From: Promethearchaeota archaeon
GTDB taxonomy: Archaea; Asgardarchaeota; Lokiarchaeia; Sigyniarchaeales; SOKP01
Assembly: GCA_048938895.1 (NCBI GenBank)
Contig: JBHLLU010000038.1
Coordinates: forward strand, 1-37,899
Direction of reading: 5' to 3'
Length of the DNA: 37,899 bases
Part shown: one piece after another, positions 5,972 to 37,899 of the stretch
Position numbering within the stretch: the stretch's first letter is position 1
How the letters are laid out: each line of letters begins with the position of its first letter
Made by a program: the position numbers and the translations under genes
Notes under the pieces: model-generated
The model's database searches: none
Told to the model about the DNA's origin: nothing
The model's input: only the letters and a program-made list of their open reading frames with translations

Positions 5972-7165
5972 TCACTTCTGATATTTATTCCAGTTTTCTT
6001 CGAGATTAGGATCCTGAAGTGTATTCATTAAATACTTAGCAAATTCTTCCCCTGTAGCTCCCGTATCTCTTCCGGTCATCTTTAATTTCTTTTCATAGGT
6101 TGCGCATATATCAAGAGCCATTTCAAGTTGTTTTGCTTTATCTACAAATCCTATATGGTTTAAAAGTAATGCAGCAGCCTTTATGATGCTAGAAGGGTCA
6201 GCATATTGAGCTCTGCCTTCTTCAACCATTCGAGGAGCTGAACCATGAATAGCTTCAAACATTGCGTATTCTTTACCTATATTTGCGCTTCCAGCAGTAC
6301 CAACTCCACCCTGTAGCTGAGCAGCTTCATCAGTAATGATGTCCCCATAAAGATTAGGGGCAACAAATACTTTAAAATCCTTTTGACGTGCAGGATCAAC
6401 GAGTTTAGCGGTTGCAATGTCAATATACCAGTCATCCCATTTAACTTGAGGATATTCTTTTGCAATTTCTTCTGCCATGGAGAGAAATCTGCCATCTGTA
6501 GCTTTTACGACATTTGCTTTCGTTACCACCGATACTCGATTAATTTTGTTTTTGGCTGCATAATCAAATGCTAAACGTATAATCCTGTCTGAACCCTGTT
6601 TTGTTATTACTTTGAAATCTATTGATAAATCATCAGAAACATTAATTCCTTTCGATCCTAACACATAAGCTCCTTCCGTATTTTCTCTGAAGAACATCCA
6701 ATCAATACCTAGCTCTGGTACTTTTACTGGGCGAACATTAGCAAATAAATCTAATTCACGCCTCATTGTAACATTAGCACTTTCGATATTTGGCCATTTA
6801 TCTCCTTTACGTGGCGTAGTTGTTGGGCCTTTTAATAAAACATGACACTTCTTAATTTCTTCTAAAACATCATCAGGAATAGCCTTCATTACTTTAGCTC
6901 TGTTTTCAATTGTCAAACCTTCAATAACTCTAAGTTCTACAGCACTACTATTCGACTCATCCTTAAGTAAAAATTCCAAAATTGTTTGAGCATGCTTTGT
7001 TATATATGGTCCGATTCCATCCCCACCAACGAGTCCTATAATAATAGGTTTGAGTTTAGAATAATCAGTCCAATCCGCGGCTTTTTTCATCTGTTCAACT
7101 CGTTCCAATTGTTCTCTAACAAGAGACTCAAAATGTTTTGTTGCTTTTTCTACTAAATCAGTCAT
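5972..7165 (-). CDS. icd: Isocitrate/isopropylmalate dehydrogenase family, probably isocitrate dehydrogenase
   Basis: GDGIGP, KGPTTTP, SANVTMRRELDLFANVRP (IDH-like S/N/R substrate residues), RENTEG, NLYGDIITD, EAIHGSAP. SD GAGGT. Confidence 0.75.
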   Translation of the reverse strand: MTDLVEKATKHFESLVREQLERVEQMKKAADWTDYSKLKPIIIGLVGGDGIGPYITKHAQTILEFLLKDESNSSAVELRVIEGLTIENRAKVMKAIPDDVLEEIKKCHVLLKGPTTTPRKGDKWPNIESANVTMRRELDLFANVRPVKVPELGIDWMFFRENTEGAYVLGSKGINVSDDLSIDFKVITKQGSDRIIRLAFDYAAKNKINRVSVVTKANVVKATDGRFLSMAEEIAKEYPQVKWDDWYIDIATAKLVDPARQKDFKVFVAPNLYGDIITDEAAQLQGGVGTAGSANIGKEYAMFEAIHGSAPRMVEEGRAQYADPSSIIKAAALLLNHIGFVDKAKQLEMALDICATYEKKLKMTGRDTGATGEEFAKYLMNTLQDPNLEENWNKYQK

Positions 7166-7330
7166 TTCTCATTACCTCTAAACTTTACGTTTGAATTTTC
7201 TATTAAAATTTATACTTTAAATTATAATTTTCAAAAGTATAATAAACTTGTTGAATATTCATCAAGAACCATCTTTTCCCCCAATTTATTCCCATCAAAA
7301 AAAGTAAATGATTAAGAAAGAAAAATTCTA

Positions 7331-9682
7331 TCAAATTCGTTTATGTTTTGTTGGTGTTTTTAATCCTTCATGGATTAGTATTAAACTTAACAATAAAAGA
7401 AAGAGGAAGACTCCTGGCCACAGAGCCCAAAATTTTCCAAATGCTGATCTAGCCCAGTTACAACTAATTCCTAATTGAGGTATGGAGATATCAATTAATC
7501 CAAAAAAACCAAGTGTTTGATATAATATGATTCCAAATGCTACTTCTAAAGGAATGGATTTCAATATCATTTTAATCCGATTGATTAAGTTAGATTCACG
7601 TCTTATAGCATTAGCTATGATTCCAGCAAATACTACAGTTAAAAGAAGCCCCACAATTAATATACTAATAAATCGGGGTTTTAATGCATAAAAAAGGGTG
7701 TTTGCGACAGCGAGAAGCATTATTCCTGGAATTATCAAAAATATTATCAATGTTCCAATAATGCCATAATGGACATACCTATGATATCTACCTGCCATAT
7801 ATCCGAATATTGAACCAAATAGTAGTCCTATAATAGTAATGACGATACCAAATATAAGTGCATCTTGAATTCCATAGATGACTCGTGCAAGCACATCAAA
7901 TCCATATTTGGTTGTTCCAAAGGGATGACTATAACTTGGGGATTCGAAAGGATTATCAGGAGGAAAATCTGGTGGGACTATTTCATTTATACTATAAGAG
8001 GTAAAAAAATAAGGGAATATAGAAAGAATAATGAAAGACATCAATAGTGTCAATCCGATTATAACAAAAGGATTCTTTAATGAAGTTATTATATAATTTT
8101 TGAATTCATTTCTGAAATTCAACACTTCATTTTGTTCCATATTAATTTCTTGTTCAGAAAAATGTGATAGATTTTCATTGTTTAATTTATATTCAGTAAT
8201 TGTTAGTATTCCGCTAATTATACCCAATATACCGGCTATGATTGGAATAACAAACCCAAAACTTGGAGGATAAAACATGTTCCAATAGCTAGAAAAATAT
8301 TCCTTGAAATTTGAATAATATATAATTGGACTAATAAAAATTAGAAATCCACCAACAATACTTAATACTACACCCCCATCGTACATCTTATTATTTTTTG
8401 TTTTTAATATAGGTATTAAAAGTAAAATGATCCCTATAACCATTAATATAATTATAATAGTACCTAACATAAGGTAATTATAATCCAATGGACTAACAAA
8501 AAGTTCATTAACAAATCCAGAATCAGTTGATCCACCCCCACTACCTCGTACATAAAATCCCAAATACCAAAGAAAGGATATACCATCAGGATCTAAAAGA
8601 CCCATTGTAGGAGTTATTAACCCTATTACTGTTAGACCTATAGCTATTTTCGGTATTAAAAATTTCTTTTTATAAACAATTCTCTTAAAGTTTTTAGCTT
8701 TGTCAAAAACAAACTTCTTGAAGGAATTATATACTATAGGGATAATATTTGTTAAAAAGATGGTAAAAGAAAAAAGAATAATTATAAGATAAAGACAACC
8801 AATACTGAGAAATATATCTCCCAGATAAACAGATTGTATGAAACGGTATCCAAATCCAGTTCTATTAAAACATACTTCTAGAGTAATGACTAAGGCAAAA
8901 AATATTCCAAATAATTTAGCCGCTGTTAATGAATTTGAGACAAAAGCAGTTTCCTCTGTTTTACGTTCAATATGATTCTGAGTTTGTTTAATAACTATGG
9001 CTAATATCAAAAAGCTAAGTATAAATATCGGAAGAATTGCGTGTTCAATAATACTTCCAGCTAATTTCCAATTACCATTAATAATAGAATCAAATAACGG
9101 GAATCCTGTAATATCGGATAGTGGGTAATAATATGGATCAGCTATATACATTGCCGGGAATTCGAATCCTGGTAACAATGTACAAAATTGTATCAGCGTA
9201 GCTAAAAAAAATATAGGTATGGCAAAACCTATAATTGTAAATATCCGTATTATCAAACTTTGAGCGCTATTTCGTTTCTTTATCACACTTTTACCAAGCT
9301 TAATACCTAATAATCCAATTAATAATGGTACTATGAGTATTCCAATAGTTCTAGGAAAAGTTTTAGCTAATATATCAATCACAGGTTCCCCTTCAGCAAC
9401 AATAAAGGATTCTCCCCAGTTTCCCTTGAAAAAATTCAGAAAATATAAACCAAATTGAACATACCACGGATCATAATAACCAATTTGGCGTAAAATCTTT
9501 TCATAATATGTAGGATCATCAAATAATGCTGGGGAAACTATATTATGTGGAGCTGGGTTATGTATCCCATAGTAATAGAAAAAAAAGCCAATTACTAACC
9601 CAATAAATAAAACTACAATCCCATAAACTAAGGAATTAATTATAGTAAGACGTACTTTTCTCTGATAATCTGTGAAACTCAT
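7331..9682 (-). CDS. Fused DppB-like and DppC-like peptide/nickel ABC permease with an internal 4-TM domain
   Basis: DppB signatures (PWYVQF...GNWGES, FPRT, HAILP) and DppC signature (PSYSHPFGTTKYGFDVLARVIYG). Confidence 0.75.
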   Translation of the reverse strand: MSFTDYQRKVRLTIINSLVYGIVVLFIGLVIGFFFYYYGIHNPAPHNIVSPALFDDPTYYEKILRQIGYYDPWYVQFGLYFLNFFKGNWGESFIVAEGEPVIDILAKTFPRTIGILIVPLLIGLLGIKLGKSVIKKRNSAQSLIIRIFTIIGFAIPIFFLATLIQFCTLLPGFEFPAMYIADPYYYPLSDITGFPLFDSIINGNWKLAGSIIEHAILPIFILSFLILAIVIKQTQNHIERKTEETAFVSNSLTAAKLFGIFFALVITLEVCFNRTGFGYRFIQSVYLGDIFLSIGCLYLIIILFSFTIFLTNIIPIVYNSFKKFVFDKAKNFKRIVYKKKFLIPKIAIGLTVIGLITPTMGLLDPDGISFLWYLGFYVRGSGGGSTDSGFVNELFVSPLDYNYLMLGTIIIILMVIGIILLLIPILKTKNNKMYDGGVVLSIVGGFLIFISPIIYYSNFKEYFSSYWNMFYPPSFGFVIPIIAGILGIISGILTITEYKLNNENLSHFSEQEINMEQNEVLNFRNEFKNYIITSLKNPFVIIGLTLLMSFIILSIFPYFFTSYSINEIVPPDFPPDNPFESPSYSHPFGTTKYGFDVLARVIYGIQDALIFGIVITIIGLLFGSIFGYMAGRYHRYVHYGIIGTLIIFLIIPGIMLLAVANTLFYALKPRFISILIVGLLLTVVFAGIIANAIRRESNLINRIKMILKSIPLEVAFGIILYQTLGFFGLIDISIPQLGISCNWARSAFGKFWALWPGVFLFLLLLSLILIHEGLKTPTKHKRI

Positions 9683-9749: not shown

Positions 9750-11585
9750 TTATTCTGTAAATAAAATTTCATCATAAGGTTGTCGAAATAATCCTGCTCT
9801 TTGTCGCTTTTGGTCAAAGATATGCCCCATCATTCCGATTGATCTTCCCAAAACAAATAGGCCATTTAAAGCTTCACTATAAATTACATCCTCTATTTCC
9901 TCTTTAGTGTAGTCAAGATTTTCCAACAAATCTAAGAAGGTAATCCCAATACAACCATCAACATTCAGTATAAGATTGTTTCTCTTTGAGGTTGTTGCTT
10001 TTTCGACTTCTAATGCATAATCTAAGTGTGGATGTTTGGGAAAATTTTTTAATATGAATTCTTTTAATAGCACCACTCTCATGTCAGGATTCTGAACGGA
10101 CTTAACTCTGTGTCCGATTCCGGGAATGTTGATTTGAACAACATTTTTCATATAATTCATAAACTCTACAGGTGTCATTCCTTTTTGTACAGCTTCTCTA
10201 AAATATTTTGCTGCATCTGATACGGCTCCCCCAAATCGAGGTCCTATAGTAAGTATCCCACTAGCCAATGCCGACATTAAATCTTTTCCTGCGCGAGCCG
10301 TAATGATAGCATTATGAGCACCCGAAACAGCAGGACCATGATCTGCCGTTAATTTAATAACCATTTCGATATATTGCTGTGCAAACTCAGGTAATTCACG
10401 TTTAAACCAGAGTAACCCTATAACATAGCCAAGAGTTTTGTTCTCTCTTATTATTTTATCAAGAGGTACTTGATTATAAGTAACTATCTCCCCTCGATCA
10501 TCACTTATAGATACTATTACGTCTGTAGGACGTCTTACAACTCCTAATCTAGTTGCATCATTAAAGTTTAATGGTACTTTGGGAGGTTCAAAATCTTCAG
10601 CTGGTTTTATTTTGCCTTCCTGTACTAATTTATCAAAGGTTTTTCTAATTAATTTATCTAAATCTTCATATGAATCTGGTACAATAGCTCCTACTTTCCT
10701 TAAAGCTTCATTTTTTGCTTCGGCGGTTTCCATATCACTTCCTGCCATAGCACCGGCATGCCCGAATTGTAACCCTGCGGGTAATATCTTGGCACCTGTT
10801 CCCGCTACCCAAATAACTAAGGGTTTTGTTATTTTGCTTGATTTAATTGCATCAACAACAGCATACTCATCTTTTCCACCAATTTCTCCTAAAGCTACTA
10901 ACATTTTAATATTTGGATTAGCTTCATACCGTAATAGGTGATCGATTAATTGGGATCCTGGATATTTATCTCCCCCTATAGCAATTCCTTCATAGATCCC
11001 ATCAGTTGTTTGAGATATCATAAAATTCATTTCATTGGATAATCCACCCGATTTAGATACAAATCCTACTGATCCAGGTCGGTAAAGTTTTGATAAAACA
11101 ATATTTTCAATAGTTCCTGCGGAGTTTCCAATTTTAAATGCACCTGCTTTAATACCACCAACGGTGGCGGGACCGATAATAATTTTTTTTCTTTCATCTG
11201 CAATTTTGGTTAAATGTCTTGTTTGCCTTTCTGGCATACCCTCTGCTATGATCGCTACAGTTCTAATCGTATTAGTTTCTAGTGCTTCCTTAGTTGTAGG
11301 ATATGCTGATCGAAATGAGGCAAAATTCACCATGACATCAGCATCAGGATGGTTTTTAACAGCTAAATTGAGTGTTTTATATACTGGTACTACGATCTCA
11401 TTAGAACCCCAAAATACCTTATGGTATGCTACAGCTGCATCTTGAGTAGGTCGTATTACTGCAGCCACAGATGGTTTTTCCCTTTTGCAAATGTAGTCAA
11501 AATCAAGCATTCTTTGAATAGCATTTGCTTGAAATCCATATATTATTGCTTTTGTATTTTCATCAAATAAATCATAATCTTCCAT
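9750..11585 (-). CDS. aclA: ATP-citrate lyase alpha subunit (CoA-ligase domain plus citryl-CoA lyase domain)
   Basis: QRMLDFDY, GPATVGG, SKSGG, GGDKYPGS, phospho-His QFGHAGA, ADHGPAVSGAHN, GIGHRVKS, NLILNVDG. SD GGAGG. Confidence 0.95.
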   Translation of the reverse strand: MEDYDLFDENTKAIIYGFQANAIQRMLDFDYICKREKPSVAAVIRPTQDAAVAYHKVFWGSNEIVVPVYKTLNLAVKNHPDADVMVNFASFRSAYPTTKEALETNTIRTVAIIAEGMPERQTRHLTKIADERKKIIIGPATVGGIKAGAFKIGNSAGTIENIVLSKLYRPGSVGFVSKSGGLSNEMNFMISQTTDGIYEGIAIGGDKYPGSQLIDHLLRYEANPNIKMLVALGEIGGKDEYAVVDAIKSSKITKPLVIWVAGTGAKILPAGLQFGHAGAMAGSDMETAEAKNEALRKVGAIVPDSYEDLDKLIRKTFDKLVQEGKIKPAEDFEPPKVPLNFNDATRLGVVRRPTDVIVSISDDRGEIVTYNQVPLDKIIRENKTLGYVIGLLWFKRELPEFAQQYIEMVIKLTADHGPAVSGAHNAIITARAGKDLMSALASGILTIGPRFGGAVSDAAKYFREAVQKGMTPVEFMNYMKNVVQINIPGIGHRVKSVQNPDMRVVLLKEFILKNFPKHPHLDYALEVEKATTSKRNNLILNVDGCIGITFLDLLENLDYTKEEIEDVIYSEALNGLFVLGRSIGMMGHIFDQKRQRAGLFRQPYDEILFTE

Positions 11586-11603: not shown

Positions 11604-12896
11604 TCAGGTTTTACCCCCTTCTGCTTTTTTTATTAATTCAACCACTCTTGTCATATGAGTATAACGATCATAAATTTCAATTGGAACTCCTGTTTCTTCA
11701 CCAACTTGTTTCATAAGTTCTAACCCCTGTTTTTCATTTGGACCTCCTCTGCGAACAAATATTTTAACATTTGCTTTCTTTAATTTGTCAACAGAATTTT
11801 TAATCGCACTTACTATTCCTGTAAATGTAGCTTTAACGTCTGTAAAATTAGCTATTCCACCTCCAATTATAAGATATTTTGGTCTCCCCTGAGGATCAGG
11901 GGTTTCTGTTATTAAATCAATAATTGTCTGAGCGTAAATTTCAGTATGCTCACGTGAAGGATTGCCACTATATTCTCCGTAATTTCCTAATTCTTTTCCA
12001 AATCCAAGATCAACGATTGTATCTGTATAAATAACAGAAGCTCCACCGCCTGCAACCATAGTCCATACACGCCCTTCTCTATTAATTATTGTTAATTTTA
12101 GAGAAGCACCAGTTTTTTCGTCTATTTCTTGAATTCTTGCTTCTTCTTCTGACATTGTTTGACCAAACCCACTTGGAAATTCTATAGGATTTTCTGGATT
12201 TCCCCAAGTATCCCCATGTAAGAACATAGCTGTGTCATCCAGACGAGCTTTCACATCCAAGGGTACAATCTCCTTTTTTTCAGTTATTGCAAAAGGATTA
12301 ATTTCCAAAAACGCAAAATCTTGATCAACAAATACTTGAAAAAGAGCTTTAATAAAAGGGATTAGTACATCTTTATATTCTCCCAAGTCTGGTAATTTTC
12401 CTTCTAGATCAAAAGAATTTATATCAGTTCCTAAAGGGAGGGGTATATGAATTACTTTGTCCCAGTTTTCCTCTACAAATATACCCCCTTCAAAACTAAA
12501 GTGAATTATATCATTTTCTCTATCAGAAGTAATAGAGACATAGTATTCCTTTTCATGAGGGATAAAAGGTTCAATGAGTAAGCGTTTCAATGCTCCTTTT
12601 ATATTTCCAATTTCACAAACCCTATCTAAATTATCAACACAAAATTGTTTCATTTCATCACAATTAGCGTCAAGTAAAAGTAAATTAGCTTTTCCTCTTT
12701 TCCCAAATAATTGGTCTGGTTTAACTACTACCTTTTCTGTCTCAATCCAAGGATTATCTTTTATTATTTTATCTAAATCTGTGTTGCAATCGGCAATAGC
12801 TAATTTATTATGGTATTTAAAATCAGGATAGTATTTTGGAAGTTCTCTTGCTAAAAGCATTTTAGCATCATATTCGTAAATATTTTTTTGCGCCAA
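11604..12896 (-). CDS. aclB: ATP-citrate lyase beta subunit (ATP-grasp plus citrate-binding domain)
   Basis: KPDQLFGKRGK, GRVWTMVAGGGASVIY, NYGEYSGNP, GGGIANFTDV, RRGGPN. TTG start. Confidence 0.95.
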   Translation of the reverse strand: MAQKNIYEYDAKMLLARELPKYYPDFKYHNKLAIADCNTDLDKIIKDNPWIETEKVVVKPDQLFGKRGKANLLLLDANCDEMKQFCVDNLDRVCEIGNIKGALKRLLIEPFIPHEKEYYVSITSDRENDIIHFSFEGGIFVEENWDKVIHIPLPLGTDINSFDLEGKLPDLGEYKDVLIPFIKALFQVFVDQDFAFLEINPFAITEKKEIVPLDVKARLDDTAMFLHGDTWGNPENPIEFPSGFGQTMSEEEARIQEIDEKTGASLKLTIINREGRVWTMVAGGGASVIYTDTIVDLGFGKELGNYGEYSGNPSREHTEIYAQTIIDLITETPDPQGRPKYLIIGGGIANFTDVKATFTGIVSAIKNSVDKLKKANVKIFVRRGGPNEKQGLELMKQVGEETGVPIEIYDRYTHMTRVVELIKKAEGGKT

Positions 12897-17859: not shown

Positions 17860-18729
17860 TTAAAGTAATTCCTTGATTAATTTTGGTACTTCCCATGGAG
17901 TATCAGCAATGAAAGAACCTGCTTCTTTAAGAGCTTTAATTTTACCTTGTGCTGTACCAAATTCACCCGAAATTATTGCTCCCGCATGACCCATTCGTTT
18001 ACCCTTAGGAGCACTTTTACCTGCAATATACGAAATTATCGGTTTTGATACATATTCTTTAATATATTCTGCAGTTTTTTCTTCCTCATCACTCCCAATT
18101 TCACCTATTAATACAATTAATTTGGTATTTTGTTCATTGGAGTAATATTCTACTGCTTCGACCATAGTTGTTCCTCTAACAGGATCACCTCCAATCCCTA
18201 TATAAGCAGAAACTCCAATCTCCGCATTTCCAATGGCTTTTGTAATTTCATAAGAAAGAGTTCCACTTTTGGAGATGATCGCCACATTTCCATAATGACA
18301 CATATCTCCCGGCATTATTCCTAATTTAATTTTATCTGGAATCATCATTCCTGGACAATTTGGACCTACGATGTGAAGATTTTGTATTAAAGTTAACTCT
18401 CTTAATTTAATCATATCAAATACAGGAATATTTTCAGATATTATACAAGTCATTTTTATGCCTGAAAGTAAACTTTCCTCAACTGCACTATATGAAAAAC
18501 GAGCAGGAACAAAAACAATACTTATATCACAGTTAGTGTTTTCCACAGCTTCTTCTACAGAATCAAATACAGGAATTTTATACACTACTTCTCCTCCTTT
18601 TTTAGGAGTAACTCCTGCTACTATATTAGTCCCATAATCTAACATTAAACGAGTGTGAAATTTTCCTTGGTTTCCAGTGATTCCTTGAACAACAACTTTG
18701 GATTTTTCACTTATGTACAATTTACTCAC
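17860..18729 (-). CDS. sucD: Succinyl-CoA ligase (ADP-forming) alpha subunit
   Basis: VQGITG, GVTPKKGG, GPNCPG, SKSGTL, GIGGDP, phospho-His RMGHAGA. GTG start overlaps the sucC stop. Confidence 0.92.
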   Translation of the reverse strand: MSKLYISEKSKVVVQGITGNQGKFHTRLMLDYGTNIVAGVTPKKGGEVVYKIPVFDSVEEAVENTNCDISIVFVPARFSYSAVEESLLSGIKMTCIISENIPVFDMIKLRELTLIQNLHIVGPNCPGMMIPDKIKLGIMPGDMCHYGNVAIISKSGTLSYEITKAIGNAEIGVSAYIGIGGDPVRGTTMVEAVEYYSNEQNTKLIVLIGEIGSDEEEKTAEYIKEYVSKPIISYIAGKSAPKGKRMGHAGAIISGEFGTAQGKIKALKEAGSFIADTPWEVPKLIKELL

Positions 18730-19846: not shown

Positions 19847-19964
19847 TTGTTATCCCTCTTTCCTTGTCAGTATAAAATTAATGCTCTATATCTTTTTGTT
19901 GAATTTAATTATACTTTAATATATGATAATGTGAAATAAATAATTACAAGTAAAATTTATTGAA

Positions 19965-22279: not shown

Positions 22280-22332
22280 GGGGATTTCATTTAATTTTAT
22301 TAATATAAAATTATTCTAATGTAAATTAAGCG

Positions 22333-22356
22333 TACTTTATAAAGTATTGGTTGATA
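22333..22356 (-). promoter_or_regulatory. Archaeal BRE/TATA promoter of nitroreductase 1
   Basis: Minus strand reads TATCAACCAA-tac-TTTATAAAG, conserved upstream of paralog 2. Confidence 0.55.
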
Positions 22357-22398
22357 AATACTCATTATATAGGAGAAAAAGAGGATTAATTGCTGAGT

Positions 22399-22458
22399 GA
22401 TTTAAAGGGAAACAAAAAACAAGAAATTATGATATGATTAAAAGAAATGGGTTTACAA
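22399..22458 (+). pseudogene. Decayed copy of the MFS gene 3' end
   Basis: Translates to DLKGNKKQEIMI*LKEMGLQ versus the MFS C-terminus DLKGSKKKEIMKKLKEMGL* (21333-21392). Confidence 0.8.
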
Positions 22459-22470
22459 GAATTATTTTTA

Positions 22471-25061: not shown

Positions 25062-26810
25062 ATGATTGTATATGGTGCATCAAAAATTAACGATATCTCA
25101 ATAGTGCTTTGTGGAGCTGCGGGTCAAGGTATTCAAACTGTTGAAGCATTATTAACAAAAACATTAAAAAGAACAGGATATCATGTATTTGCAACTCGAG
25201 AATACATGTCACGTGTTCGAGGAGGAGTCAATTCTACTGAAATTAGAGTTTCATCTAAACCTGTACGAGCATATGTCGATCGAATTGACATTTTAATCCC
25301 ACTTAACGAAGCCGCACTCCCACATTTAAAAGAAAGAATATCCCCTGATACTTTAGTCATTGGTGAAAAACGCTACTTAGAAACTATTTCAGATATTAAA
25401 TTTGAAATATTAAGTATTCCCTTTACAGAACTTTCAAATGAAGTTGGGGGTGCTATATATGCAAACATAATTGCATTAGGGGTAATATTATGCATATTAA
25501 ACGCTGAAAGGACAATACTTTTAGATTTACTTTCAGAGAATTTCAAATCAAAAGGCCAAGAAATTATTAACAATAATATTAAGGCTGTCGATAAAGGTTA
25601 TGAGGTAGTCGAACAAAAATTAGCTTCAAGAATTGTAAATAAGAAACGATTTGAAATACCGAGAAATACAGATATAATAGATAATTATATATTAGATGGA
25701 ACTCAAGCGATAGCGTTGGGTGCTATTGCAGGAGGTTGTAATTTTGCTTGTTTTTATCCAATGGCACCTTCTACTGGTATTGGCACATTTTTAGCTCAAC
25801 ATGCTCTTGAATTCGATATGATTGTTGATCAAACAGAAGACGAGATCAGTGCTATTAATAAGACTCTAGGTGCTTCATATGCAGGAGCACGTTCGTTTGT
25901 CTCCACTTCTGGTGGTGGGTTCTCTCTCATGACAGAGGGAATAAGCCTTGCAGGTATGACAGAGTTACCAATAGTAATGGTTGTGGGACAAAGACCCGGA
26001 CCCGCAACTGGAATGCCCACCAGAACGTCTCAAGAAGATATTGAACTCGTGCTATATGCTGGTGCTGGGTGGTTTCCAAGAATTATTTTCTCACCAGGTA
26101 GCCTAGAGGATGCTTTTAAATTGACCCAAAAAGCATTTAACCTTACTCAAAAATATCATGTTCCTGTATTTATTCTAACAGATCAATACCTCGTTGATTC
26201 ATATTATAATATTAGTTCATTAGATTTAGATTCCTTAGAAATTATTAAAAACATTGTTGAAACTCACAAATATTATGAGAGATACCGATTTACAGATAAT
26301 GGTATTTCTCCACGAGGAATCCCCGGTTACGGTGAAGGATTGGTTGATGCAGACAGTCATACTCATGATGAATATGGTGCTATCACAGAGGATCCAATAA
26401 TAAGAAATAAAACAGTTGAAAAACGATTTAAAAAACTCGAGGTAATTAAAAAAGAAACCATACCTCCAGAATTTTATGGAGTTAAGAAACATAAATATCT
26501 TATAGTAAGTTGGGGCAGTAATTTCTATTTGATTAAAGAAGCTTTAGAAAGATTGGACCGGGATGATATTGGTTTCTTATTTTTTAAACAGATTTATCCC
26601 ATTCATGAATCTGCTCTTGATTATCTTACGAATGCGGAAATAAGGATATCAATTGAGCAAAATCCGACTGCACAATTTGCGAAACTATTAGAAAATGAAA
26701 CTCACATAAACATGAACCATAGGATTTTAAAATACAGTGGTTATATTTTCTCTGTCGAGGAAATTTTGGAACGATTGAAAAATATAATTGGTGGTGAGAA
26801 AGATAACTAA
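25062..26810 (+). CDS. korA: 2-oxoacid:ferredoxin oxidoreductase alpha subunit (gamma-alpha fusion)
   Basis: GAAGQGI, EYMSRVRGG, FYPMAPST, QTEDEISA, TSGGGF, QRPGPATG.PT. Confidence 0.9.
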   Translation: MIVYGASKINDISIVLCGAAGQGIQTVEALLTKTLKRTGYHVFATREYMSRVRGGVNSTEIRVSSKPVRAYVDRIDILIPLNEAALPHLKERISPDTLVIGEKRYLETISDIKFEILSIPFTELSNEVGGAIYANIIALGVILCILNAERTILLDLLSENFKSKGQEIINNNIKAVDKGYEVVEQKLASRIVNKKRFEIPRNTDIIDNYILDGTQAIALGAIAGGCNFACFYPMAPSTGIGTFLAQHALEFDMIVDQTEDEISAINKTLGASYAGARSFVSTSGGGFSLMTEGISLAGMTELPIVMVVGQRPGPATGMPTRTSQEDIELVLYAGAGWFPRIIFSPGSLEDAFKLTQKAFNLTQKYHVPVFILTDQYLVDSYYNISSLDLDSLEIIKNIVETHKYYERYRFTDNGISPRGIPGYGEGLVDADSHTHDEYGAITEDPIIRNKTVEKRFKKLEVIKKETIPPEFYGVKKHKYLIVSWGSNFYLIKEALERLDRDDIGFLFFKQIYPIHESALDYLTNAEIRISIEQNPTAQFAKLLENETHINMNHRILKYSGYIFSVEEILERLKNIIGGEKDN

Positions 26811-27663
26811 TAATTCGTTTGATTTGGAAGGAATTGAAATGCATTGGTGTCCTGGATGTGGAAACTTTAGTGCGATGAAAGTAATGAAAGAAACATTGAT
26901 TGAATTAAATATAAAACCAAAAGATTTCGTATTAGTTTCTGGAATCGGACAAGCGGGAAAATTTCCTCATTTTATGAAATCACAAAGCTATAATGGACTT
27001 CACGGGAGATATTTGTCAGCAGCATTGGGTATAAAAGCAGCAAATCCAAATCTTCATGTAATTGCTGTGAGTGGTGATGGATGTACATATAGTGAAGGAG
27101 GAAATCACTTTCTCCACACCATCCGGTATAATCCAGATATTGTCAATATTGTACATAATAATATGGTCTATGGGTTAACGAAGGGTCAAGCATCTCCTAC
27201 TAGTCAGTTAGGCTTTAAAACCAAAGTTCAGGTATTTGGGGTTATAAATGAACCATTTAATGCCGTAGCGGTGGCTATAGCATTGAATGCTTCTTTTGTT
27301 GCCAGAGCATTCGTAGGTGATATAGAAAAGTCCAAAGAGATTTTAAAAAGCGCTATAAACCATAAAGGATATGCTCTTATAGATCTACTATGTCCATGTG
27401 TTAGTTTTAATCGCGTTAATACCTTTCAATGGTACAAGGCAAATAGTTATTATATAGATAGTTCTCATAATCCACATGATCAAAAAGCCGCAATGGATTT
27501 GGCATTAGATACTAGTAAGTTTGCTTTAGGAATTCTATATCTAAATCTCAATAGGAGAATCTATAGTGAAAACGTTCGTATTTATAATAATGATAAAAGA
27601 CCATTATATCAGCGTGATTTAAACAAAAAAAAAATAGAGGACTTGTTAAACACTTTTCGGTAA
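26788..27663 (+). CDS. korB: 2-oxoacid:ferredoxin oxidoreductase beta subunit (TPP-binding); start uncertain between 26788 and 26803
   Basis: WCPGCGN, SGIGQ, LHGR, GDG...EGGNH, NNMVYGLTKGQASPT, PCVSFN. Confidence 0.9.
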   Translation: MVVRKITNNSFDLEGIEMHWCPGCGNFSAMKVMKETLIELNIKPKDFVLVSGIGQAGKFPHFMKSQSYNGLHGRYLSAALGIKAANPNLHVIAVSGDGCTYSEGGNHFLHTIRYNPDIVNIVHNNMVYGLTKGQASPTSQLGFKTKVQVFGVINEPFNAVAVAIALNASFVARAFVGDIEKSKEILKSAINHKGYALIDLLCPCVSFNRVNTFQWYKANSYYIDSSHNPHDQKAAMDLALDTSKFALGILYLNLNRRIYSENVRIYNNDKRPLYQRDLNKKKIEDLLNTFR

Positions 27664-27693: not shown

Positions 27694-29406
27694 ATGAAGA
27701 TAGAAGAATTTGATGTTGTGGTGGTTGGTGCTGGTCTCAGCGGATTAAGAGCGGGATTAGAATTATCATCAAGGTGGAATGTAGCAGTAATTAGTAAAGT
27801 CTATCCTGTTAGATCTCATTCTGGAGCAGCTCAAGGGGGTATCAATGCTGCATTAGGAAATTTAGCAGAGGCAAAAGAGGATACTCCAAAAAAGCATGCA
27901 TTTGACACAATCAAAGGTTCAGATTATCTAGCAGATCAAGACGTTGTAATGTTCATGTGTGAAGAAGCTCCTAAAATTGTGGTTGAATTTGAAAGTATGG
28001 GTGCTCCTTTTTCTCGATTAGAATCTGGATTAATTGCTCAACGTCCTTTTGGTGGTGCTGCGTTTCCACGTACTTGTTATGCGGGGGATAGAACAGGTCA
28101 TGCTTTACTTCATACGCTTAATGAACAATCAGTTCGTAAGGGTGTAACTTTCTTTGATGAATATTTTTTAATTGATCTTTTTTCAGTACAAGGAAAAATT
28201 GCAGGATTGATAGCTCTTGATATTGCCAAAGGAGAGCTTGTTTCATTTAGAGCACCTTATATCATTTTAGCAGCAGGAGGGTTTGGAAGGATATTCAAGC
28301 GTTCTACAAATGCAGTTATTAATACAGGGGATGGCGTAGGAGCTGCCTTTAGAGCGGGTGTACCTATGCAAGATGTTGAGTTTGTCCAATTTCATCCAAC
28401 AACCTTGTATGGGACTAATATTCTCATAACCGAAGGTGCTAGAGGTGAAGGTGGATATCTTTTAAATAAAAATAAAGAACGATTTATGATAAAAACTGCT
28501 CCAAAAGCCATGGAGCTTGCCCCACGAGATATGGTTGCACGAGCAATTGAAACTGAAGTTATTGAGGGTAGAGGTTTTGATAATGCTTATGTCAATCTAG
28601 ATCTTACCCATCTAGGAGCTGATAAAATAAATGAACGATTACCTGGGATCAAAGAGATTAGTATTTACTTTGCTGGGGTTGATCCCATTGAAGAACCAAT
28701 TCCTGTACAACCTGGACAACACTACTCAATGGGAGGAATTGGAACAAAATTTGATGGTGATTATGGTGAAACAGATTTAGATGGATTGTATACGATTGGT
28801 GAATGCTCTTGTTTATCAGTTCATGGTGCAAACCGATTAGGCGGAAATTCATTACTAGAAACAGCTGTATTTGGAAGATATATTGGAAGAAAATTGATAG
28901 AAAAAGGTTTGCCGTCTAAACCATCATTGAGTAAGATCCAAACTGCTGAAGAAGGTACACTCGAGAAGATCGAACAACTCCTTAAAAGTTGGGATACTAA
29001 TACGGGCAAGAAACCGGTAGAACTTAGGAATGAAATGGGTGAAACCCTAAATAAGAATGTTGGAGTCTATAGGAATGAAAAAGATCTTAAAAAAGCGAAC
29101 CAGACTCTTATCAAATTGCAGAGTGAATTTTTAAATGTTCATGTTCCAACTGAAGATAGAAAGTTTAATTTTGGATTAGTTCGCACACTAGAACTTCGGA
29201 GCATGATAGACATTGCAGAAGTCACTGCTTTCGCCTCGTTATGGAGAAAAGAGAGCAGGGGAGCTCATTTTCGCACAGATTATTCTAGCCGAAATGACAA
29301 TGATTATTTAGTACATTCAATGGTTTATAGAAGACAAAACAGGCTAGAAATTAAAACTAAACCCGTTAAATTAGGAATATTTGAAGTAAAAGAGAGGAAA
29401 TACTAA
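27694..29406 (+). CDS. sdhA: Succinate dehydrogenase/fumarate reductase flavoprotein subunit
   Basis: GAGLSG, RSHSGAAQGG (covalent FAD His), QFHPT, ELAPRD, HYSMGG, HGANRLGGNSL, ESRGAH. Confidence 0.93.
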   Translation: MKIEEFDVVVVGAGLSGLRAGLELSSRWNVAVISKVYPVRSHSGAAQGGINAALGNLAEAKEDTPKKHAFDTIKGSDYLADQDVVMFMCEEAPKIVVEFESMGAPFSRLESGLIAQRPFGGAAFPRTCYAGDRTGHALLHTLNEQSVRKGVTFFDEYFLIDLFSVQGKIAGLIALDIAKGELVSFRAPYIILAAGGFGRIFKRSTNAVINTGDGVGAAFRAGVPMQDVEFVQFHPTTLYGTNILITEGARGEGGYLLNKNKERFMIKTAPKAMELAPRDMVARAIETEVIEGRGFDNAYVNLDLTHLGADKINERLPGIKEISIYFAGVDPIEEPIPVQPGQHYSMGGIGTKFDGDYGETDLDGLYTIGECSCLSVHGANRLGGNSLLETAVFGRYIGRKLIEKGLPSKPSLSKIQTAEEGTLEKIEQLLKSWDTNTGKKPVELRNEMGETLNKNVGVYRNEKDLKKANQTLIKLQSEFLNVHVPTEDRKFNFGLVRTLELRSMIDIAEVTAFASLWRKESRGAHFRTDYSSRNDNDYLVHSMVYRRQNRLEIKTKPVKLGIFEVKERKY

Positions 29407-30173
29407 TGGTTAATATGCAGAAATTTTTGGTTTATAGAAATAATGGAGATGGAAATATTCGTTATGATAAATTTGAGGTTCCTTTAACAAAAGGTATGAG
29501 CATATTAGAAGCACTTTTTTATATACAGGATTATATCGATTCCTCTTTAGCATTTCGATACGCTTGTAGAGGTGCTATTTGTGGCTCTTGTGGGATGACA
29601 ATTGATAAAGTACCATTACTCGCATGTAGAACTCAGGTTTTAACTGTAAAGTCTTCAACGAAACCTGTTAATCTGCCTGAATTCAAATTAGGGGAATATC
29701 AAAATTGGAACTCCACAACCGAAATTTTGATTGAACCCTTACCTAATATGGCTGTATTGAAAGATCTAGTAGTCGATATGGAACCATTCTGGAAATTTTA
29801 TAGAGAAATTGAACCATTTTTCATAAAAGAATGGAATGATAAAGCTCCTGAATCTTCACAGTTTCCTAATCAAATGAAAAAAATTGAGCGCTTAGTTTAT
29901 TGTATTCTTTGTGGATTGTGTTGGGCCTGTCCAGTTAGTAAAATCAATCCAAATTATCTTGGACCAGCACAATTAGCTAAGGCTGATAGATTTGTAAGAG
30001 ATTCTAGAATTACAGACAAAAAACAGGAATCTATTCTTAGACGAGTATTAGAACATGACGCAGTTCCTGCATGTGAGAAGTATTTTGTATGTAATCGAGT
30101 TTGTCCTAAAGATGTTCTGCCCGGTATTGCAATAAAGGATATAAGAGAAAATTGGATGAGCAAAAAAGATTAA
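29406..30173 (+). CDS. sdhB: Succinate dehydrogenase/fumarate reductase Fe-S subunit
   Basis: CRGAICGSC..LAC (2Fe-2S), CILCGLCWACP, CEKYFVCNRVCP. TAATG overlap with sdhA. Confidence 0.9.
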   Translation: MVNMQKFLVYRNNGDGNIRYDKFEVPLTKGMSILEALFYIQDYIDSSLAFRYACRGAICGSCGMTIDKVPLLACRTQVLTVKSSTKPVNLPEFKLGEYQNWNSTTEILIEPLPNMAVLKDLVVDMEPFWKFYREIEPFFIKEWNDKAPESSQFPNQMKKIERLVYCILCGLCWACPVSKINPNYLGPAQLAKADRFVRDSRITDKKQESILRRVLEHDAVPACEKYFVCNRVCPKDVLPGIAIKDIRENWMSKKD

Positions 30174-33688: not shown

Positions 33689-35086
33689 TTGATCAAAATT
33701 TCTAAATATCGAATTGAGAAAGATATTTTAGGAGAAATTAAGGTACCTGACAGTGCATATTGGGGTATTAATACCCAACGAGCAATTGAAAACTTTCAAA
33801 TTAGTGGCATTACTTTCCCTAAAATTTTTATTTCTTCTTTAGCTGTATTAAAAAAAGCTACTACTTTAGCAAATATAGATTTGAATTTGATTGACGAGAA
33901 TATAGGGACTGCAATTATTAAAGCTGCAGAGGAAATATTTAAAGAAGGAAAATATTCTGATCAATTTCCAATTGATTTTTATCAAACTGGGAGTGGTACT
34001 CAGACGAATATGAATATGAATGAAGTGCTAGCAAATAGAGCTAATGAAATCTTAGGATTTCCTAAGGGGGAAAAAACTCCTGTACATCCAAATGATCATG
34101 TAAATAGATGTCAATCTTCTAACGATGTTATTCCAACTACTATGCATATTTCAGCACTCCTTCTCATAAATCAAAAATTATTTCCAGCTTTAAAAAGACT
34201 AGTTGAAGGATTAACATTAAAAATTGAGGAATTTAAAGAAGTTATCAAAGTAGGAAGAACTCATCTTCAAGATGCTGTTCCAATTCCCTTATCTTTAGAA
34301 TTTGAAGTATATAAAAAACAAATTATCACATGTGAAAACCGAATAAATAATGCTTGTAAAGAGCTTTATCAAATTCCTATTGGTGGAACCGCATTAGGAA
34401 CTGGATTAAATGCAAGTGACGGTTTTGCCCAATTAACTATTGATTACTTATCAAATATGACAGAATTACCTTTTGAGCATAACCCGGTTATGGCGGAAGG
34501 AATATCTTCGCATAATGTAATTTCTAACCTAAGTAGTTCTTTAAAAAATTTAGCATTATCTTTATTGAAAATGGCAAATGATATTAGATGGATGGGAAGT
34601 GGTCCAAGAGCAGGACTTATGGAATTAATTCTACCTAAAAATGAACCTGGATCCTCTATAATGCCCGGGAAAGTTAATCCTACTCAATCTGAATCATTAA
34701 TACAAGTATGCCTAAGAGTTATAGGAAATGACGCAATTATTACCTACTCAGAAGCTTATGGAAGTATTCTTGATTTAAATGTTTGTAAACCCTTGATGAT
34801 TTTCAGTCTTTTAGATTCTATAGAAATTATCAGTAATTCAATTAATTCTTTTATTGACCATTGCCTTTTAGACATAAAAGCTAACAGACAGCAAATCAAT
34901 TCTCAATTGGACAATTTGCTTATGTTAGTTACAAATCTCACTCCCATATTAGGGTATGATAAATGCTCAGCAATTGCTATTAAAGCCTATGATGAAAATA
35001 AGACAATTAAAGATGTTATTGAAGAAATGGGAATTGAGATAGGGGAAGACCTTGATGAAATTTTAGATCCAAAAAAGATGGTTTGA
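33689..35086 (+). CDS. fumC: Class II fumarate hydratase
   Basis: QTGSGTQTNMN, HPNDHVN..QSSND, GRTHLQDA, GSSIMPGKVNPTQ. Confidence 0.9.
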   Translation: MIKISKYRIEKDILGEIKVPDSAYWGINTQRAIENFQISGITFPKIFISSLAVLKKATTLANIDLNLIDENIGTAIIKAAEEIFKEGKYSDQFPIDFYQTGSGTQTNMNMNEVLANRANEILGFPKGEKTPVHPNDHVNRCQSSNDVIPTTMHISALLLINQKLFPALKRLVEGLTLKIEEFKEVIKVGRTHLQDAVPIPLSLEFEVYKKQIITCENRINNACKELYQIPIGGTALGTGLNASDGFAQLTIDYLSNMTELPFEHNPVMAEGISSHNVISNLSSSLKNLALSLLKMANDIRWMGSGPRAGLMELILPKNEPGSSIMPGKVNPTQSESLIQVCLRVIGNDAIITYSEAYGSILDLNVCKPLMIFSLLDSIEIISNSINSFIDHCLLDIKANRQQINSQLDNLLMLVTNLTPILGYDKCSAIAIKAYDENKTIKDVIEEMGIEIGEDLDEILDPKKMV

Positions 35087-35095: not shown

Positions 35096-36163
35096 GTGAC
35101 CATAGATATAAAAACTGTAGAAGATGTTAGGAATTTAGCAAGAGAGAAATTAAAGGGTATATGTGGTGTTTATAAAGATTGTGATGGTGATCCACGAAGG
35201 TTATGTCAGGGGCAGAGTTATGGAAGAGCACTTGGAATAGGAGGTATAGGAAGTGGAACAAGTTTCAATAATAATTTTTTAGCCCTTCGTAAGTATCAAT
35301 TAAAAATGAAGTTAGTAGAACCTGATTTTGATTCTAATACCACATATGATTTCTTTGGAAATAAACTTACTATGCCCATCATGGCAGCAAGTGTTGCCGG
35401 AGTTAATAGTTTTGGCGGAGAGAAAGTTATAGCTGAGCAGGACTTTTGTCGTTCCGTAGTTTTAGGGTGTAGAGATGCGGGAACAGTAGGATGGAGAGGA
35501 GATACATATACGTATTCCCTCGAAAATTCGTATGCTCTTAATGCTATAGCAGAAGCTGGAGGATGGGGTGTTAAAATAGTAAAACCAAGAGAACAAGGAA
35601 CTATAATGCAATTTTTTAATAAGGCAGAAGAAGTTAGATGTATAGCTGTTGGTGTTGATATAGATGGTTCTGGATCGTATGCTATGGCTACTCATAATAA
35701 ACCAGTTTTTAAAAAATCTGTTAAGGAACTAGAAGAATTAATATCTGCTACAAGTCTTCCTGTTATTATAAAAGGTGTAATGTGTGTTGATGATGCTATG
35801 AAAGCCGTAGAAGCTGGAGCTGCTGCTATCGTGGTTTCTAATCATGGGGGCCGAGTTTTAGATCATACACCTGGAACTGCTGACGTTCTCCCAGATATTG
35901 TTGAAGCATTAAAAGGAAAGACAAAAATAATTGTAGATGGTGGGATTCGTACTGGTTACGATGTGTTAAAAATGCTTGCACTTGGTGCCGAATCTGTGTT
36001 AATTGGACGAGATATCATTAGAGCCGCTGTAGGTGCAGGAATTAATGGTGTAAGAATTCATATGGAATATATGCAAAAAACCTTACAGAAAGCTATGAAA
36101 ATGACAAATTGTGAGACATTAAAAGATATATCTCCTAATATTTTATATTTTGATAATAATTAG
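35096..36163 (+). CDS. FMN-dependent alpha-hydroxy-acid dehydrogenase/oxidase family
   Basis: IIKGV, VSNHGGR (catalytic His), DGGIRTG, IGR; N-terminal Cys cluster. GTG start after GAGGTGA. Confidence 0.88.
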   Translation: MTIDIKTVEDVRNLAREKLKGICGVYKDCDGDPRRLCQGQSYGRALGIGGIGSGTSFNNNFLALRKYQLKMKLVEPDFDSNTTYDFFGNKLTMPIMAASVAGVNSFGGEKVIAEQDFCRSVVLGCRDAGTVGWRGDTYTYSLENSYALNAIAEAGGWGVKIVKPREQGTIMQFFNKAEEVRCIAVGVDIDGSGSYAMATHNKPVFKKSVKELEELISATSLPVIIKGVMCVDDAMKAVEAGAAAIVVSNHGGRVLDHTPGTADVLPDIVEALKGKTKIIVDGGIRTGYDVLKMLALGAESVLIGRDIIRAAVGAGINGVRIHMEYMQKTLQKAMKMTNCETLKDISPNILYFDNN

Positions 36164-37011: not shown

Positions 37012-37159
37012 TTATGTTCAATTATCTATTTCAATCTTAATACCTTACCTTTTAAAAATAAAAATCCCTCCCAAATTAATGTTTTAAAAGACTAAGAAAT
37101 AAATAACTCTCTATTTTACTTTAAGGTAAATCTAACATTTCAAAAAATAGGTTTTATTC

Positions 37160-37899
37160 GTGAATCGAGAATCAAAAGCTTGTGAAACTCCCGATACCTT
37201 CTTGTGTGAAGATTTCGAAGAAGAAGAACCACAGCTCTGTGAAATAGATAAGTCAAAAACTTATAAAGGGCTTGTTGGAATATATGTCGATGAAAGCTTA
37301 ATAACATACATCGATGGAATGAATGGAGAATTATATTATCGAGGTTTTCCTTTACATGATTTAGTAGATAAATCTTCATTTGAAGAAGTAGTATATCTAC
37401 TTATATATGGAAAACTTCCTACTAAGTCTGAATTTAGTGATTTTAGAGATATATTAATAAAAGAACGGAATATACCAGACAATATCTTAACGATTCTGAA
37501 GAGTTATCCAAGAAATACTACAAGAATTGAATTATTGAGAACATCAATTTCTGCATTATCACTTTATGACCCTGATGACTATGATTTTTCTGAAGAAGCT
37601 AATATTAGAAAAGGCTTAAGAATTATTGCGAAAATACCGACGGTCATAGCGTTTTCTCATCGAATTCAAACTAATCAACCATTGGTAGAACCTTCAGAAG
37701 ATCTATCGCATGCATGTAATTACTATTATATGATGACAGGGGGCGTTCCTAATAATAAGTTTACGCAATATTTCGATAAGATATTGATGTGTCATATGGA
37801 CCACTCTATTAATAGCAGTACGTTTTCTTGTAGAGTAACAGTATCAACTTTATCAGACATTTATAGTGGAATTACTAGTGCAATAGGGACATTAAGAGG
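37160..37899 (+). CDS. gltA: Citrate synthase / 2-methylcitrate synthase family, 3'-truncated, absent from the ORF track
   Basis: GTG start and open to the window end: KGLVGIYVDESLITYIDG..GELYYRG, SFEEVVYLLIYGKLP, IIAKIPT, CHMDHSINSSTF, STLSDIYSGITSAIGTLR. Confidence 0.88.
   Translation, partial: MNRESKACETPDTFLCEDFEEEEPQLCEIDKSKTYKGLVGIYVDESLITYIDGMNGELYYRGFPLHDLVDKSSFEEVVYLLIYGKLPTKSEFSDFRDILIKERNIPDNILTILKSYPRNTTRIELLRTSISALSLYDPDDYDFSEEANIRKGLRIIAKIPTVIAFSHRIQTNQPLVEPSEDLSHACNYYYMMTGGVPNNKFTQYFDKILMCHMDHSINSSTFSCRVTVSTLSDIYSGITSAIGTLR

Follow-up and report, generated by a model that had tools for sequence, protein, structure and literature searches.

Lokiarchaeial genomes encode enzymes of the tricarboxylic acid (TCA) cycle, and the contig described here raises the question whether such genes, when clustered, sustain carbon dioxide fixation via the reverse TCA (rTCA) cycle or serve another purpose. 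The contig (JBHLLU010000038.1 of assembly GCA_048938895.1, Promethearchaeota archaeon; C55 in our numbering) was analyzed over its whole length of 37,899 nucleotides, hereafter called the window. A preliminary description of this stretch had put forward that the organism may run rTCA carbon fixation or a switchable cycle. We found that the window makes up most of a conserved central-carbon gene neighborhood of Lokiarchaeia type. The reading that we favor, with confidence that is evenly balanced, is that of a reversible or branched, ferredoxin-linked, heterotrophic cycle and not of a dedicated autotrophic reverse cycle.

Results and discussion

Cycle enzymes encoded in the window

Genes were called from a listing of open reading frames and from Pfam and NCBIfam scans. 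In this way, all genes that had been named before (icd-like, aclBA, sucCD, korAB, sdh/frdAB, fumC and citrate synthase) were recovered in their places. The two subunits of ATP-citrate lyase (ACL) are encoded by aclA (9750-11585, minus strand), with CoA-binding, CoA-ligase and citryl-CoA-lyase domains (Pfam CoA_binding, Ligase_CoA and Citrate_synt), and aclB (11604-12896, minus strand), with ATP-grasp and citrate-binding domains (Citrate_bind 263 bits, Citrate_synth_N 219 bits). The best solved match of AclA is ACLY-B of Methanosaeta concilii (6hxi/6znw), to which it aligns over the full length (791 bits); the scores are 745 bits for human ACLY and 415 bits for the Chlorobium-type AclA (6hxj). 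Together with the GHAGA histidine motif, which is aligned and kept, and the fact that aclB is the sole copy in the genome, this upholds the first of the rTCA markers claimed earlier, and the predicted enzyme is a true heteromeric AclAB. The likeness to the Methanosaeta and eukaryotic ACLY (6hxi, 6znw, 6hxh) thus covers the AclA alignment, the motif and the AclB ATP-grasp and citrate-binding parts. The predicted enzyme differs from the fused eukaryotic chain by its two separate subunits, and it is much further from the Chlorobium-type chain 6hxj_B.

The icd-like gene (5972-7165, minus strand; Pfam Iso_dh, E 1e-66) encodes a beta-decarboxylating dehydrogenase that stays under every NCBIfam equivalog cut-off (best, NADP-dependent isocitrate dehydrogenase (ICDH), 263 bits against 509). 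Among solved structures it comes closest to the NAD-dependent ICDHs 6lky, 6m3s and 6ltf (E ~1e-56), with which it has an S-x-N-V-x-x-R stretch in common. This motif, with its S-x-N part, is a mark of isocitrate specificity, and the protein is probably an ICDH. Succinyl-CoA synthetase is represented by sucD (alpha subunit, 17860-18729, minus strand; NF004230 equivalog, 373.9 bits against a cut-off of 336) and sucC (beta subunit, 18722-19846, minus strand, with an apparent ATT start), whose C-terminal 216 residues match NF001913 positions 169-385.

On the plus strand, korA (25062-26810) encodes the fused gamma-alpha subunit of a two-subunit 2-oxoacid:ferredoxin oxidoreductase (OFOR; TIGR03710 OAFO_sf, 614 bits against 482.75) and korB (26788-27663) the thiamine pyrophosphate-binding beta subunit (TIGR02177 PorB_KorB, 329.7 bits against 261.9; NF008821, 420.5 bits, just under its cut-off of 438). 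Since KorA is about equally close to the Sulfolobus OFOR 5b48 (252 bits) and, over the full length, to chain 6n2n (238 bits), its sequence points to no particular substrate; the match to 8ys5, which is named 2-oxoglutarate synthase, is weaker. The gene context favors 2-oxoglutarate as the putative substrate, considering the linkage of korA to sdhA in 20 of 21 relatives. The flavoprotein gene sdhA/frdA (27694-29406, plus strand; TIGR01812 sdhA_frdA_Gneg, 731.6 bits against 567.3) scores 653 bits with the sdhA_forward model, under the cut-off of 727, and is followed by the iron-sulfur subunit gene sdhB/frdB (29406-30173, plus strand; TIGR00384 dhsB, 202.7 bits against 88). Within the window, the Pfam and NCBIfam scans gave no CCG domain in SdhB and no membrane-anchor gene adjoining sdhAB.

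The class II fumarase gene fumC (33689-35086, plus strand; Pfam Lyase_1 and FumaraseC_C) scores 563.7 bits with the fumC_II model, under the cut-off of 664.75, and 514.5 bits with the aspartase subfamily model, just over the cut-off of 510. Its best solved matches are fumarases, with 446 bits against 395 for aspartase; an identity as aspartase is disfavored by these ~50 bits, and we leave it a small residual probability. Finally, the contig end cuts a citrate synthase (CS) gene after 246 N-terminal residues (37160-37899, plus strand; Pfam Citrate_synt, E 1e-62, profile positions 1-210). Candidates for the whole marker trio on which the rTCA proposal was built are therefore present, with a true AclAB and, side by side, the OFOR and Sdh/Frd pairs as putative 2-oxoglutarate:ferredoxin oxidoreductase and fumarate reductase; the direction of flux that was attached to them is not readable from these genes.

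Extent of the neighborhood

The source genome (G000; other genomes, contigs and loci are likewise referred to by our own numbers) measures 4.65 Mb in 174 contigs and is rated 98.7% complete with 7.5% contamination, and the absence of a protein family from it is thus likely, yet unproven. The last 77 bases of the window are the first 77 of contig C157, and the CS frame continues across the join: C157 starts with the C-terminal 199 residues of the enzyme (TIGR01800 profile positions 187-368). CS is followed on C157 by the aconitase AcnA (899 aa; NF006757, 1365 bits, cut-off 686). At its far end C157 has 77 bases in common with the end of C15, and a second aconitase (641 aa; NF005558, 990 bits against 612) lies around 0.5 kb inside C15. 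The start of the window overlaps C109 likewise, by 77 bases. Exact overlaps of this length occur at 204 of the 348 contig ends of G000, and alone they are mere graph links; given their number, much of the assembly could be scaffolded from its own graph.

The whole order is found on single contigs in two genomes of the same genus (G194:C36 and G227:C2). It runs from an aminotransferase, an ornithine carbamoyltransferase and an AFOR gene via icd-aclAB, sucCD, (korAB)-sdhAB and fumC-FMN dehydrogenase-CS-acnA to the second aconitase and a pair of glutamate dehydrogenases; G194 lacks korAB at the corresponding place. Synteny over such a length, 75 kb, was seen only within one genus. The statement that aconitase is not in the window was thus correct to the letter, but the enzyme belongs to the cluster, with one copy on the abutting C157 and a second on C15, and the aconitase family has several matches in G000. 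A genome without aconitase, which had been named as a reason to abandon the rTCA proposal, is accordingly not what was found, and neither of the two other such reasons, a KorAB specific for another 2-oxoacid or clustering that relatives do not share, has emerged. Taken together, the window and the two abutting contigs are predicted to encode every step of the citric acid cycle.

In four relatives (G249:C26, G247:C150, G229:C21 and G236:C56) the AcnA match lies inside an open frame of ~1310-1324 residues with a single internal stop, and the CS match is found ~0.5 kb from it on the same strand. CS and acnA may share one frame in these genomes.

A search of species-representative genomes with AclB gave 76 loci, the neighborhoods of which were inspected by tblastn with the window proteins, including 10 kb of flank per side where available; the denominators given below count only loci with enough flank. 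Because AclB was 68-93% identical in 75 of the 76 loci, nearly all of which are titled Promethearchaeota, Promethearchaeia, Hod-, Thor-, Hermod- or Heimdallarchaeota metagenome-assembled genomes (MAGs), the contig is Asgard, as had been supposed. Contamination as its origin was rejected on basis of the GC content (around 0.32; 0.323 against 0.311 for the genome), the graph links and the synteny on long same-genus contigs.

The clustering itself is better than chance. Of the 75 loci with any match, 72 have aclA and aclB side by side. Where the flank allowed a test, icd was located downstream of aclA in 52/60 (directly adjacent in 42/60), sucC and sucD upstream in 26/50, and fumC within 9 kb in 15/46. 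Two loci in which AclB is 69-81% identical, L054 and L082, hold a compact and insert-free version, fumC-sdhB-sdhA-korB-korA / sucC-sucD-aclB-aclA-icd. The synteny comparison across Asgard genomes that the preliminary description had called for hence speaks for conservation and not for its lack.

A widespread core and a less frequent, ring-closing module

The distribution of the cycle genes was surveyed in 135 genomes of the window's family, G000 included, with single-protein queries and thresholds of our own choosing. For CS, 39 genomes were obtained on basis of E-value and 37 at 68% identity or more, dropping G210 (36%) and G157 (31%). For SdhA these numbers were 39 and 33 (at least 70% identity), and the other six sequences, ~40% identical, resembled the TfrA-like gene on C125 that is described below. 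The positions of korA and sdhA, CS and AcnA, ACL and SdhA, and fumC and the FMN enzyme were compared by eye.

ACL, as recognized by Pfam Citrate_bind, was present in 122 genomes of a phylum-wide sample of 400 and in 81/135 of the family. The second aconitase (106), fumC (97) and Ldh_2 (120) were recovered from more of the 135 genomes, and CS (37), the SdhA orthologue (33), KorA (22) and AcnA (22) from fewer. ACL, SdhA and KorA occurred together in 15 genomes, and ACL, SdhA, CS, KorA and AcnA in nine. More explicitly, 54 of the 81 ACL-bearing genomes had none of CS, SdhA, KorA and AcnA. KorA was accompanied by SdhA in all 22 cases, by CS in 19 and by ACL in 15, at base rates of 37/135 for CS and 81/135 for ACL; in seven genomes KorA and SdhA occurred without ACL. 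The linkage is similarly tight: korA lies on the contig of sdhA, at most 6.3 kb away, in 20 of the 21 relatives that have it, and CS within 5 kb of AcnA in 17/21. ACL and SdhA, where they share a contig, are 6-22 kb apart in 14 genomes.

Two parts can thus be discerned: a common core, consisting of the second aconitase, fumC, aclBA, icd and often sucCD, and a rarer ring-closing module of korAB-sdhAB, the FMN enzyme and CS-acnA. The closed genome G189, of the same genus, contains the core alone, with the second aconitase, fumC and aclBA interspersed with peptidase genes; CS, SdhA, KorA, AcnA and the FMN enzyme were absent, and there was no icd within the stretch examined. In the 54 genomes that have ACL without the module, ACL, ICDH and the second aconitase may be the sole link between acetyl-CoA plus oxaloacetate and 2-oxoglutarate, with ACL possibly acting as an ATP-yielding citrate synthase.

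A flavin-dependent candidate for the missing malate dehydrogenase

The window was described earlier as devoid of malate dehydrogenase (MDH), and the same appears to hold for the canonical NAD-dependent enzyme in the genome as a whole, as a family search of G000 for Ldh_1_N malate/lactate dehydrogenases gave no match. One Ldh_2 protein is encoded on C18, with L-sulfolactate dehydrogenase as its best NCBIfam match (275 bits, under the cut-off of 500). The listed matches of Ldh_2 lie on contigs other than those of the cluster genes, by which a role of this protein as MDH is neither supported nor excluded.

The gene that follows fumC (35096-36163, plus strand) encodes a homolog of FMN-dependent 2-hydroxyacid dehydrogenases (Pfam FMN_dh, PF01070; E 3e-62, 211 bits against a gathering threshold of 24.9). 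It was found in 53 of the 135 family genomes, and in 51 of these fumC immediately precedes it, in the same orientation; in the other two the genes are at contig edges. The gaps are mostly 10-40 bases (443 in one genome), and the pattern extends across six genera. The order sdhA-fumC-FMN dehydrogenase-CS(-acnA), seen in G170:C9, G171:C81, G176:C57, G163:C21 and G175:C278, is that of the pathway, and places the FMN gene where a malate dehydrogenase is expected. Furthermore, the gene accompanies SdhA in 31/33, KorA in 21/22 and AcnA in 20/22 genomes. It is not universal, however: among the diverse AclB loci it follows fumC in only four of the 14 that could be tested.

With its score far over the gathering threshold and the catalytic Lys, His and Arg in place, the protein belongs to PF01070. 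K226, H250 and R253 do not vary among 18 orthologues, and in the alignment they fall on the KG and SNHGxR stretches that lactate and hydroxymandelate oxidases have; the C-terminal half thereby keeps the K...SNHGGR signature of these enzymes. The N-terminal half is divergent. Residues 48-190 give a weak alignment with hydroxymandelate oxidase (11.9 bits), in which the strand position QL(Y/C/F) of the oxidase reads K-I-V-K-P-R, none of residues 1-47 could be aligned, and K160, K163 and R165 are invariant in the 18 orthologues. N-terminal tyrosines that bind the substrate are a feature of glycolate oxidase. Invariant cysteines at positions 23, 29 and 37 (C-x5-C-x7-C) and at 118 were observed in the same orthologues, and have no counterpart in the aligned solved members; the motif may constitute a metal or iron-sulfur site. 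Compared with the lactate, hydroxymandelate and glycolate oxidases of PF01070, the likeness therefore resides in the FMN_dh match and the C-terminal Lys and SNHGGR, and the differences in the cysteine motif within residues 1-47, the K-I-V-K-P-R strand and the linkage to fumC.

Database names do not go beyond 'alpha-hydroxy-acid oxidizing protein' or '4-hydroxymandelate oxidase', and the neighbors in the protein atlas, mostly bacterial, are annotated at family level as alpha-hydroxy-acid oxidizing protein or L-lactate oxidase. The product of fumarase, L-malate, is an L-2-hydroxy acid and fits the stereochemistry of the FMN-dehydrogenase family. Given the gene context, malate is our best guess for the substrate. 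It is possible, though we put it somewhat below an even chance, that the protein represents the missing Lokiarchaeial malate dehydrogenase, in the form of a flavin-dependent L-malate:acceptor oxidoreductase, perhaps with a metal or iron-sulfur site. By analogy with the malate:quinone oxidoreductase of bacteria, such an enzyme may favor the oxidative direction. A narrow phrase search of open-access text returned no FMN- or flavin-dependent malate dehydrogenase or oxidase, which is no proof that none has been published. The enzyme, bound as its gene is to that of fumarase, is the one lead of this locus that deserves experiment.

Carbon, redox and amino-acid context in the genome

A malic enzyme is encoded on C135, and CdhC, a marker of the Wood-Ljungdahl pathway, on C28. 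The check for carboxylating enzymes that had been proposed turned out favorably in one part, with ten matches for POR_N that make a pyruvate synthase plausible, and unfavorably in the other: PEPcase_2, the archaeal phosphoenolpyruvate carboxylase (PEPC), and PYC_OADA were absent from G000, in a search that did not cover the bacterial PEPC (PF00311), phosphoenolpyruvate carboxykinase (PEPCK) and phosphoenolpyruvate (PEP) synthase. As far as these searches reach, the combination of a pyruvate synthase with an anaplerotic PEP or pyruvate carboxylase is represented by POR_N only. Family searches of G000 for Cyt_bd_oxida_I, COX1 and Sdh_cyt gave no match either. Of the steps particular to an oxidative cycle, the entry via CS is accordingly there, and a membrane-anchored succinate:quinone reductase with a respiratory acceptor was not found.

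The neighborhood is flanked by genes of amino-acid metabolism, which G194 and G227 have in synteny. Two glutamate dehydrogenases and pyroglutamyl and M29 peptidases are encoded on one side; the other side has genes for an ornithine carbamoyltransferase, an amino-acid kinase and a class III aminotransferase. On C15 (L101:6010-11236) the tandem glutamate dehydrogenases adjoin tandem CCG-domain proteins (423 and 456 aa) that have no NCBIfam match, and a flavodoxin, the pyroglutamyl peptidase and the M29 peptidase are nearby, all syntenic with the TCA neighborhood in G194.

A second TCA-related set is present on C125 at ~67.5-77.9 kb (L110:5552-15928). It includes a three-subunit OFOR, the class I fumarase FumAB (NF004885, 352.7 bits against 276), an ACD-like ligase, a TfrB with CCG domains (NF004898, 516 bits against 385) and a TfrA-like flavoprotein just under its cut-off (709.1 against 718). 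TfrA-like matches, around 40% identical to SdhA of the window, were recovered from 10 of the 135 family genomes at the threshold used.

Direction of the cycle

In the heterotrophic cycle that we favor, the core would interconvert 2-oxoglutarate with acetyl-CoA and oxaloacetate, and oxaloacetate with fumarate, and the accessory module would close the ring by means of korAB-sdhAB, the FMN-dependent dehydrogenase after fumC, and CS-acnA. The host would be a strict anaerobe that has a Wood-Ljungdahl marker and lacks a respiratory chain, and in which the cycle would serve to degrade and to build compounds of the glutamate and aspartate families. We infer this role, and with it a flux in either direction, because the widely kept core links 2-oxoglutarate to acetyl-CoA and oxaloacetate, because the neighborhood includes two glutamate dehydrogenases, peptidases and arginine/ornithine genes, because the ring-closing module tracks CS rather than ACL, and because a separate set for the reductive branch is found elsewhere in the genome, on C125.

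Several points weigh against it. Candidates for each of the three classical rTCA markers occur here, and nothing in the sequences would preclude a reductive flux. Without quinones or oxidases, the oxidation of succinate by an anchorless SdhAB is thermodynamically hard, which favors the reduction of fumarate, at that step at least. The nearby amino-acid genes were seen only in genomes of the same genus, and this synteny is possibly inherited and not selected. Moreover, the family genomes are related and partly incomplete MAGs, so the co-occurrence counts are not independent; they describe the pattern and are no test of it.

The same genes could support autotrophy if ACL cleaved citrate, KorAB carboxylated succinyl-CoA and SdhAB or TfrAB reduced fumarate, so that CO2 is fixed. 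This reading, which is both the earlier and the published one for Lokiarchaeia (10.1101/385732, as far as its accessible part goes), accounts for the joint presence of ACL, an OFOR beside SdhAB, two Sdh/Frd-type enzymes, an ICDH-like protein, two aconitases, SucCD and fumarases; the plausible pyruvate synthase is in keeping with it, and fumarate reduction would suit a flavoprotein that has no anchor in a cell that has no respiratory chain. We nevertheless consider it rather unlikely. CdhC already indicates a Wood-Ljungdahl route, and an rTCA cycle is therefore unneeded for autotrophy; PEPcase_2, PYC_OADA and a canonical NAD-MDH were not found in G000; KorA and SdhA co-occur more with CS than with ACL, and do so without ACL in the seven genomes mentioned; the combination of ACL, SdhA and KorA is limited to 15/135 genomes; and the arrangement of CS-acnA, fumC and the FMN gene follows the oxidative pathway. 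Of the earlier proposal, the gene set, the aconitases and the conserved clustering have thus held, whereas its autotrophic part, besides having been published before, is weakened by CdhC, by the preference of Kor-Sdh for CS and by the searches of G000 in which PEPcase_2, PYC_OADA and a canonical MDH were not found.

The arrangement in pathway order in five genomes (G170, G171, G176, G163 and G175), like the tracking of CS by KorA and SdhA, would also suit a complete oxidative cycle, in which acetyl-CoA enters via CS and is oxidized to CO2, a syntrophic partner receives the electrons in the form of H2 or formate, and malate oxidation is made easier by the FMN enzyme. FumC and AcnA are iron-independent or oxygen-tolerant types, which points the same way. 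In such a cycle ACL would be redundant, however, and given that no terminal oxidase or Sdh membrane anchor was found, succinate oxidation would need a high-potential acceptor or reverse electron flow; we regard an oxidative cycle as unlikely, and as the less credible of the two directional alternatives. It is very improbable, finally, that the genes form no functional unit at all, their order being merely inherited among close relatives and the enzymes serving separate biosynthetic needs. The unrelated genes that interrupt the cluster and the restriction of the 75-kb synteny to one genus are what such an explanation would predict, but the tighter, insert-free versions occur precisely in the more distant L054 and L082, and fumC and the FMN gene (51/53), korA and sdhA (20/21) and CS and acnA (17/21) are kept as neighboring pairs across six genera.

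Relation to known systems

In the classical rTCA cycle of green sulfur bacteria and Aquificota, ACL is combined with a ferredoxin-dependent 2-oxoacid oxidoreductase and a flavoprotein of the fumarate reductase type. This trio is common to both systems; the present one differs by the Wood-Ljungdahl marker, by CS and two aconitases within the cluster, and by the fact that neither PEPcase_2/PYC_OADA nor NAD-MDH was found in G000. The incomplete reductive branch of methanogens, with TfrAB (NF004898/NF004900), has its counterpart in the set on C125, outside the window, and the window SdhB differs from methanogen TfrB in lacking CCG domains.

The gene content and the rTCA idea have been published before, and the window adds another genome to them; in this sense its main finding is ordinary for the lineage. 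In the accessible part of a 2018 preprint, Bulzu et al. (bioRxiv 10.1101/385732) describe a complete TCA cycle with ICDH, KOR and ACL in Lokiarchaeia, with sdhC and sdhD missing and MDH found only via COG2055, and infer an rTCA cycle for autotrophic CO2 assimilation. The present genome is alike in lineage, enzyme list, the lack of sdhC/sdhD and a putative MDH of COG2055/Ldh_2 type only (here on C18). As far as that text could be compared, theirs is an analysis of presence and absence with an autotrophic rTCA as outcome, whereas here one conserved neighborhood emerges in which the full set is accessory (9/135) and Kor-Sdh tracks CS. According to the parts of the further literature that were consulted, an rTCA gene was reported for two Lokiarchaeota genomes (PMC6646929, a 2019 review), TCA enzymes were tabulated across Asgard genomes (PMC8813620, 2022), ACL was found in most Asgard phyla (10.1101/2022.10.25.513756, a 2022 preprint) and ACLA/B of various Asgardarchaeota was related to eukaryotic ACLY (PMC11976288, 2025); two surveys take AclB or aclAB as a marker of carbon fixation (PMC11216029, PMC12806544). 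The same parts of the Asgard papers contain no discussion of the gene order or the FMN gene, on which their supplements may hold more.

Asgard metabolism feeds models of eukaryote origin, and ACL is among the few central-carbon enzymes that are discussed as a possible contribution of the host (PMC11976288, 10.1101/2022.10.25.513756, in the sections consulted). For specialists it is useful that the cycle genes make up one conserved neighborhood, divided into a common core and a less frequent module that closes the ring. In most relatives, ACL by itself, a frequent rTCA marker in surveys, is no indication of a complete cycle. In addition, a concrete and testable candidate for the missing malate dehydrogenase is now available.

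Start codon of sucC and intervening genes

The sucC gene lacks an ATG, GTG or TTG start, its frame measuring 375 aa from stop to stop. The start region (19844-19860, minus strand) shows an AAGAGGG motif and then TAA-CAA-ATT at the expected start. Aligned first codons of 28 Asgard orthologues (loci L018-L093) were ATA in 12, ATT in 11 and ATC in one case (24/28 in all); the remaining ones were ATG (3) and GTA (1), each preceded by a GGAGG-like motif. This looks like a conserved non-canonical start codon.

The presence of unrelated accessory genes between the TCA genes, which had been remarked upon before, was borne out by their Pfam families. These include a fused ABC permease, a TPR protein, three nitroreductases, an arabinofuranosidase, an MFS_2 transporter, PGA_cap, a radical SAM/SPASM enzyme, an NMO-like protein, hydrolases and an APH-type kinase. 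The MFS_2 transporter (19965-21392, plus strand; E 1e-38) is a conserved, divergent neighbor of sucCD and is present in 33 of the 75 related loci with any match. The fused permease, between icd and aclA (7331-9682, minus strand), is a frame of 783 aa with two permease halves, OppB/NikB-like at residues 14-314 and OppC/NikC-like at ~508-775. Finally, two tandem paralogs (273 and 272 aa) at 21458-23289 on the minus strand have a 4Fe-4S ferredoxin domain fused to a nitroreductase domain, and this pair is found at the equivalent place in G194 and G227.

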